Shown here piece after piece: positions 30,689 to 30,948 of a stretch of DNA of 64,000 nucleotides. Numbering within the stretch: position 1 is the first letter of the stretch; each line of letters opens with the position of its first letter. Made by a program: the position numbers and the translations under genes. The DNA is from Escherichia coli (lineage in GTDB: Bacteria > Pseudomonadota > Gammaproteobacteria > Enterobacterales > Enterobacteriaceae): NCBI RefSeq assembly GCF_046105845.1, contig NZ_CP151004.1, one strand, 5' to 3'. The notes under the pieces are model-generated. The model was given only the letters and a program-made list of their open reading frames with translations, was not told where the DNA came from and did not search any database.

Positions 30689-30948
30689 TAAGTGATATCA
30701 ATAAATTCATTATTCATATACCCATCGATATAAATATATTCTGAATTATTATTAATGTCTGATAATAAACTTGATTTTTTGCTGTTTTAATAATATTTAA
30801 ATAATTAATTTATATTAAAATGCGACCAATTAATATTATTTTTAGATAAAATAATCTCTTTGATGTACTATGCCTTTGAATCAAAAAGGTACTTATTAAT
30901 ATAGGTGATGATTCATGGTAAAGGATATATTATATCAATGGAGTTTTT

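Follow-up and report, generated by a model that had tools for sequence, protein, structure and literature searches.

Results

A known fimbrial operon between glmS and pstS

The stretch of Escherichia coli DNA that was analysed (64,000 nucleotides, hereafter the window) contains, according to its list of open reading frames, the gene order atp-glmU-glmS / lpfABCD / pstSCAB. This order agrees with the RefSeq annotation of the best-matching locus, which is 99.5% identical and reads atpC-glmU-glmS-lpfA-O113-lpfB-O113-lpfC-O113-fimbrial protein-pstS-pstC. The lpfO113 operon is said to have been described by Doughty et al. in 2002. By megablast, positions 30600-31000 are covered over at least 80% of their length in 1939 of 5426 complete E. 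coli genomes, at 82-99.5% identity and on the chromosome in every case, and the features annotated under these matches are glmS and "lpfA-O113: long polar fimbria major subunit". Both megablast and alignment show that the leader of the window matches the leaders of annotated lpfA-O113 loci. The lpfA gene itself was found in 1942 of the 5426 genomes. The window carries a minority allele of it, with 111 genomes matching at 99% identity or more and 1819 matching at 95-99%.

The protein products were compared with the NCBIfam models. The major subunit (PRK15289, 389 bits against a cut-off of 203) and the chaperone (PRK15290, 532 bits against a cut-off of 317) were recognised outright; the best matches of the usher and of the fourth protein (top model StgD) lie under the respective cut-offs. 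For LpfA, LpfB and LpfD the best models all come from the Salmonella Stg series. A four-gene lpf operon between glmS and pstS has been reported (PMC6033998), in agreement with the locus in the window, and the names lpfO113, lpfA2-1 and "lpfB1" are used for it across the literature (PMC6033998, PMC4636846, PMC3032704). On these sequence grounds we identify the spacer upstream of lpfA as the control region of the known lpfO113 (lpf2-1, lpfA2-1, 'lpfB1', Stg-type) chaperone-usher operon. The coordinates of all features are collected in Table 1.

Table 1. Features of the glmS-lpfA-pstS region, in coordinates of the 64,000-nucleotide window
Feature	Position	Strand	Description and basis
glmS	28812-30641	+	609 codons; RefSeq annotation of the 99.5%-identical locus; 3' end is the conserved left island border
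Whole lpf island, glmS to pstS Pho boxes	30642-36070	+	44% GC; delimited by the ends of K-12 homology
glmS intrinsic terminator	30657-30686	+	A-tract, GC hairpin (GGGCTGCC / GGCGGCCC), T5; inverted repeat I1
Distal AT-rich segment, predicted curved	30697-30855	+	About 160 bp, roughly 80% AT; proposed H-NS nucleation platform or UP-like region
Best conserved distal block	30728-30775	+	Candidate regulator site; ATATAAATATATTCTGAATTATT..TTAATGTCTGATAATAAACTTGAT; alignment of E. coli alleles
Candidate core promoter	30843-30871	+	TAGATA 30843-30848, 17 bp, TACTAT 30866-30871; predicted
Proximal conserved 93 bp	30856-30948	+	Probable -10, 5'UTR, ribosome-binding site GGAG 30941-30944
Conserved imperfect inverted repeat / predicted 5'UTR hairpin	30877-30915	+	GAATCA..CACTTA..TAAGTG..TGATTC; RNAalifold
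Small upstream ORF	30905-30952	+	(V)MIHGKGYIISMEFL, then stop; 14-15 codons; TGA overlaps the lpfA ATG (ATGA)
lpfA	30949-31521	+	ORF, 190 codons, ATG at 30949; RefSeq name lpfA-O113
lpfB	31569-32300	+	ORF; RefSeq name lpfB-O113
lpfC	32325-34847	+	ORF; RefSeq name lpfC-O113
lpfD	34858-35928	+	ORF; RefSeq 'fimbrial protein'
lpfABCD operon	30949-35928	+	lpfO113 / lpf2-1 / Stg-type

Borders and distribution of the island

The window matches K-12 up to and including the glmS stop codon (30639-30641); the match breaks at 30642 and returns at about 36071, at the pstS Pho boxes. In K-12 the operon is absent and the glmS-pstS spacer measures just 313 bp. The lpf operon is accessory DNA: it is missing from K-12, is carried by about 36% of complete E. 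coli genomes (~1940 of 5426) and sits on an island with a GC content of 44%. The island replaces ~210 bp of the K-12 spacer (window 30642-30690 and 35929-36070; 2543-2750 of the K-12 locus, L003), DNA that in K-12 holds its own glmS terminator and a CTGTCA-repeat region upstream of the pstS promoter; the island supplies a glmS terminator of its own. We take the insertion site between glmS and pstS to be the attTn7 region.

Other versions of the island are found at this position. In O157:H7 the site is occupied by a different operon, lpf2 (OI-154), which has a 700-bp leader. In Pseudocitrobacter vendiensis (locus L011, 2185-2500) glmS is followed by a 316-bp leader with a GC content of 23% and by an lpfA gene whose product is 87% identical at the amino-acid level, an arrangement indicating that the glmS-adjacent position of the lpf fimbrial operon extends beyond Escherichia. 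A scan of genome contigs for the leader locus returned two loci only. One of them is a 1-kb contig (JAIJJM010000969.1) from a 'Collinsella sp.' MAG, which carries the 3' end of glmS, the leader and lpfA at E. coli-level identity and is almost certainly an E. coli contig that was mis-binned.

Composition, curvature and repeats

The initial annotation had singled out a strongly AT-rich region immediately in front of the gene for the fimbrial major subunit, and this description is accurate. Positions 30690-30948, which end at the lpfA start codon, have a GC content of 20.1%, against a window average of 47.9% and 53% in the adjoining glmS gene; in the AT-rich core (30697-30948) the value is 19.8%. 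Just 0.02% of all 259-bp windows in the 64 kb reach a GC content this low, and the minimum of 19.7% starts at 30681. TpA steps occur at 15.9 per 100 bp versus 5.4 in the window (~3-fold), and the longest run of A and T in the 64 kb (37 nt, 30785-30821) lies here. Predicted curvature is high as well: the wedge model, which was run with Bolshoy/Trifonov dinucleotide parameters and yields relative values only, places a peak at 30758-30878, the second most curved 120-bp segment of the window (0.06 percentile). The most curved predicted segment (49374) lies at the edge of a second, larger AT-rich tract at 49400-56000, where the 259-bp GC minima are 24-27%; this is an accessory region with annotated genes for the T3SS effector EspY4, a type III effector protein and a pentapeptide-repeat protein.

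Short direct repeats had also been reported for the region, a claim that did not hold up. The two quoted sequences, TTATTATTAAT (30746) and ATTTAAATAATTAATTTATATTAAAA (30795), exist, but each occurs once in the window. When first-order Markov simulations of the same composition were used as the null, neither the longest exact direct repeat, at 8 nt, nor the count of 7- and 8-mers occurring more than once stood out (76-98% of simulations attained as much), meaning that there is no excess of repeats. TRF made a single call (an 11-nt unit repeated 1.9 times, 30785-30805). The quoted "direct repeats" are simply low-complexity sequence. Sigma-70-like hexamer pairs are enriched: we counted seven in 30500-31700 versus 2.8 +/- 1.6 in shuffles, and six of the seven fall within 30713-30818, on both strands.

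Anatomy of the glmS-lpfA spacer

The spacer measures 307 bp (30642-30948) and consists of three parts: a terminator, a distal AT-rich part and a proximal conserved part. The word 'leader', which has been applied to the region, is loose, since the first ~45 bp past the glmS stop codon, up to 30686, belong to the terminator, and what follows is probably for the most part untranscribed. The fold of 30650-30700 has a predicted energy of -22.6 kcal/mol (z -4.9) on the + strand and -21.2 kcal/mol (z -5.5) on the - strand. The terminator is kept in all alleles as well as in O157 lpf2, and its sequence is unlike that of the K-12 glmS terminator. An Rfam scan of 30400-31200 at permissive E-values gave sub-threshold matches only, centred on the terminator hairpin.

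In the distal part it is the composition rather than the sequence that is preserved. Positions 30642-30855 are 58% identical to their Pseudocitrobacter counterpart, as compared with 52% for shuffled sequence. The GC content of the leader is 25% in the window, 28% in O157 lpf2 and 23% in Pseudocitrobacter, with distal parts that can barely be aligned with one another; thus, the sequence of the distal segment drifts fast while its AT content is retained in every version of the island examined. Within E. coli, alignment of the alleles reveals three invariant blocks (30728-30775, 30785-30816 and 30828-30850), the first of which is weakly matched in the O157 lpf2 leader (..CAATGTGTGATAATAAA..) by local alignment. 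Relative to the common allele, the spacer as a whole is 85% identical (~85-89% for the leader), versus 97.4% for lpfA (94% at third codon positions) and 98% for glmS, and in most E. coli alleles the divergence of the spacer exceeds that of both flanking genes (window 30642-30948 compared with L004-L007). This fast divergence points to recombination or to rapid regulatory evolution within the leader.

One strain carries a gross rearrangement of the spacer. In enteroaggregative EAEC 042 (NC_017626.1, locus L009) a ~25-kb IS1-flanked resistance island with a Tn21-type mer/integron, cat and tet(A) has been inserted inside the leader, such that the equivalent of window 30600-30862 adjoins glmS and that of 30855-31000 adjoins lpfA (17057-17202 and 42180-42442 of the locus). 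The 8-nt overlap (30855-30862) resembles a target duplication. The insertion lies between the candidate -35 and -10 elements and parts the distal AT-rich DNA from lpfA.

The proximal 93 bp behave differently from the distal part. They are 80% identical to Pseudocitrobacter, versus 64% at the third codon positions of lpfA, and 83-94% identical among E. coli alleles. We infer that this segment is under purifying selection; most likely it comprises the core promoter, the ribosome-binding site and a ~70-nt 5'UTR in which a small hairpin lies. All E. coli alleles and Pseudocitrobacter share the sequence TTGRTGTASTAT, and GTACTAT is present in O157 lpf2 too. The candidate promoter to which it would belong scores 8/12, which is under the threshold of the scanner, and its -35 element is weak and not conserved in Pseudocitrobacter.

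Two smaller features of the proximal part were noted. Using RNAalifold on six sequences, we found that 13 of the 27 predicted pairs form the hairpin at 30877-30915, the helices of which are largely unchanged among the sequences, showing a few one-sided changes that retain G-U pairing, one compensatory pair and almost no covariation; its stability is not above that of shuffles (z +0.18). Where the window allele differs, G-U pairs are preserved, as might be expected of an RNA structure more than of a DNA palindrome. The small upstream ORF keeps its open frame and its length throughout all E. coli alleles examined as well as in Pseudocitrobacter, and its counterpart in O157 lpf2 has five codons (MELYL, then stop). 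No adequate Shine-Dalgarno sequence precedes the ORF, and it may owe its conservation to constraint at the DNA or RNA level. Both the hairpin and the ORF are observations and not established elements.

Discussion

Proposed conditional silencing by nucleoid-associated proteins

The locus is already known, and the region upstream of lpfA is probably an ordinary AT-rich promoter of an accessory chaperone-usher operon under nucleoid-protein control. Specifically, we consider it likely that the lpfO113 spacer combines a terminator, a distal landing pad for H-NS and StpA and a proximal promoter, and that expression is conditional and strain-dependent, not absent. According to this model nucleoid-associated proteins, mainly these two, would settle on the distal AT-rich curved DNA, polymerise across the promoter and keep transcription low, in the way that experiments have shown for the sister operon lpf1. 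Growth conditions, or regulators encoded outside the island, would relieve the repression.

The initial annotation had proposed an H-NS-like silenced promoter of a horizontally acquired operon. Composition, predicted curvature, accessory status and the lpf1 precedent all speak for this proposal; a specific H-NS nucleation site, on the other hand, does not stand out. The best match to the high-affinity motif tCGATAAATT, reportedly defined by Lang et al. in 2007, is TCAATAAATT at 30698, which agrees at 9 of 10 positions, and 14% of composition-matched simulations do equally well. Likewise, consensus scans of the leader for Fur, IHF, Lrp, CRP, PhoB, Fis and the H-NS motif found none above chance, as judged by Markov-1 simulations. 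The body of the operon is mildly AT-rich (41-49% GC), and extended H-NS filaments across the genes are therefore not guaranteed.

The precedent is lpf1, which is reported to be bound and silenced by H-NS, with Ler relieving the silencing (Torres 2007; Rojas-Lopez 2011; both cited in PMC4288034 and PMC5357955); more generally, most chaperone-usher operons are regarded as being under H-NS control (PMC6033998). From composition, curvature, island status and the analogy with lpf1 we infer, reasonably in our view, that H-NS binds at the lpfO113 leader. Silencing is kept at the same level of confidence because searchable literature yielded no H-NS occupancy, ChIP or hns-mutant data for lpfO113, the motif match is within chance and the operon body is only mildly AT-rich. 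In the main-text tables of an hns study of EAEC 042 the lpf locus tags do not appear; in that strain the leader is split by the IS1 composite element.

The operon is expressed

Published data on expression and mutant phenotypes contradict the further claim that the operon is probably cryptic in laboratory culture. The 'lpfB1' operon is transcribed in the exponential phase in defined medium, with levels in HUS-associated STEC exceeding those in non-HUS STEC ~10-12-fold, despite the operons of the two groups being 99-100% identical (PMC6033998). Loss of lpfA2 (O113-type) in O104:H4 reduces adherence to polarized Caco-2 cells (PMC4636846), and PMC4636846 and PMC3032704 cite roles in adherence for strains of O113:H21 and O78. 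Activity of the S. Typhi stg promoter is moderate and peaks in minimal medium (PMC5809473). Since lpfO113 is transcribed, and has phenotypes, in wild-type strains in vitro, any silencing must be partial, and partial repression that depends on condition and strain fits the expression data better than crypticity does.

Alternative readings of the spacer

The same expression data could mean that the AT-rich curved DNA is mainly activating, be it through UP-element-like contacts or through bending by Fis or IHF, with a small role for H-NS and an operon that is normally expressed. A-tracts and curvature do lie directly upstream of the candidate -10 element. However, the matches to the IHF and Fis consensus sequences are within chance, and E. 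coli sequences as AT-rich as this leader are generally bound by H-NS. Transcription in defined medium and the adherence phenotypes of mutants (PMC6033998, PMC4636846), as well as the moderate activity of the stg promoter (PMC5809473), speak for an activating architecture, whereas the ~10-fold difference in expression between operons that are 99-100% identical points to trans-acting repression or derepression. We regard a mainly activating role as possible but rather unlikely.

The leader could instead be primarily an iron/Fur- and bile-responsive promoter like that of O157:H7 lpf2, a reading that is compatible with H-NS binding. The lpf2 operon, located at the same chromosomal site, is reported to respond to bile salts, iron and Fur (Arenas-Hernandez 2014, as cited in PMC4288034), and its induction by bile is also reported in PMC5357955. 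Furthermore, the O157 leader contains the palindrome GTGATAATAAATTATCAC, the left half of which has a similar counterpart in the window, TGTCTGATAATAAA at 30756-30769. Nothing in the window leader corresponds to the right half, however, and the window and O157 lpf2 leaders share only their terminal anchors and one weak block. The best Fur-box scores are 12/19, found in the distal block 30728-30775, and 11/15; these are no better than chance, being reached by 84-90% of composition-matched simulations. We consider a promoter governed primarily by iron and bile unlikely here.

A further reading shifts attention to the proximal 93 bp, which would act as a post-transcriptional control element, through translational coupling to a leader peptide or through an RNA structure that gates the ribosome-binding site, with the distal part tuning strain-specific silencing. 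It is prompted by conservation above that of synonymous sites out to Pseudocitrobacter, by the conserved hairpin and by the ever-open upstream ORF. We give this reading little weight.

It is also conceivable that the AT-richness has no function and that the distal leader is unconstrained DNA, left behind when the island entered the glmS/attTn7 hotspot and since degraded by AT-biased mutation. Near-shuffled identity of the upstream part with Pseudocitrobacter, distal divergence exceeding that at lpfA third codon positions in most E. coli alleles and the 25-kb IS1 composite element within the distal leader of EAEC 042 could all be read in this way. Against it, the three versions of the spacer have little recognisable distal similarity and yet all have a GC content of 23-28%, an extreme composition that would be unlikely to arise from unconstrained drift alone, and in E. 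coli alleles with 82-99% identity a number of distal blocks show no change at all. For these two reasons non-functional AT-rich junk is disfavoured, and we consider it very doubtful.

Finally, phase variation, through a fimS-like invertible promoter or through Dam/Lrp methylation of the Pap type, might be suspected from a 12-nt inverted repeat (I5, 11/12 matching, 30722-30733 / 30930-30941) that brackets 196 bp and from 10-fold strain differences that could reflect ON and OFF populations, but it is hardly credible, as the left arm of the repeat (30722-30733) is not conserved among alleles and there is neither an adjacent recombinase gene nor any papI/papB-like gene. A query with 30734-30929 inverted was covered to at least 80% in 0 of 5426 genomes, of which ~1940 carry the locus, which essentially refutes inversion. 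The spacer (30642-30948) contains no GATC, which excludes the methylation switch, and its best Lrp score is within chance.

Relation to other fimbrial operons

Compared with lpfO113 as annotated, the locus in the window shows no structural difference: its position and its four genes (lpfABCD) agree, and the DNA is 99.5% identical. The cryptic chaperone-usher operons of E. coli K-12, reportedly shown by Korea et al. in 2010 to be silenced by H-NS, share with lpfO113 the general logic of an AT-rich promoter region. They are essentially silent in laboratory cultures of the wild type, whereas lpfO113 is measurably expressed, with phenotypes in several wild-type strains. The stg operon of Salmonella Typhi, which presumably also sits between glmS and pstS, is likened to lpfO113 by its proteins, through the Stg-series models that are best for LpfA, LpfB and LpfD. 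In laboratory culture the stg promoter is weakly to moderately expressed (PMC5809473).

The silencing mechanism that we propose for lpfO113 is taken from the case of lpf1 of O157:H7 (OI-141). There, too, the region precedes an operon for gamma-1 long polar fimbriae that is located on an accessory island. However, lpf1 is a different operon at a different chromosomal site (yhjX-yhjW), and H-NS binding has been demonstrated for lpf1 and is extrapolated to lpfO113. The lpf2 operon of O157:H7 shares with lpfO113 the insertion site, a homologous glmS terminator, the ribosome-binding-site region and one weak internal block. Its leader is more than twice the 307 bp found here and its interior is otherwise unalignable, with half of the GTGATAATAAATTATCAC palindrome being present in the window; the lpf2 and lpfO113 proteins are 42-63% identical (PMC6033998).

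Implications

The locus is fixed as lpfO113 (lpf2-1, Stg), a virulence and typing marker in wide use, and the practical value of the identification as such is limited. We found no dissection of the lpfO113 promoter in the reachable literature. New in the present analysis are the division of the spacer into a distal part conserved in composition only and a proximal part conserved in sequence, along with the small conserved features of the latter, and the exclusion of two phase-variation mechanisms for the lpfO113 leader. The conclusion that the operon is cryptic should not be carried forward. The distal/proximal split offers a design for promoter-deletion and H-NS experiments, which in turn could explain the 10-fold differences in expression reported between strains.
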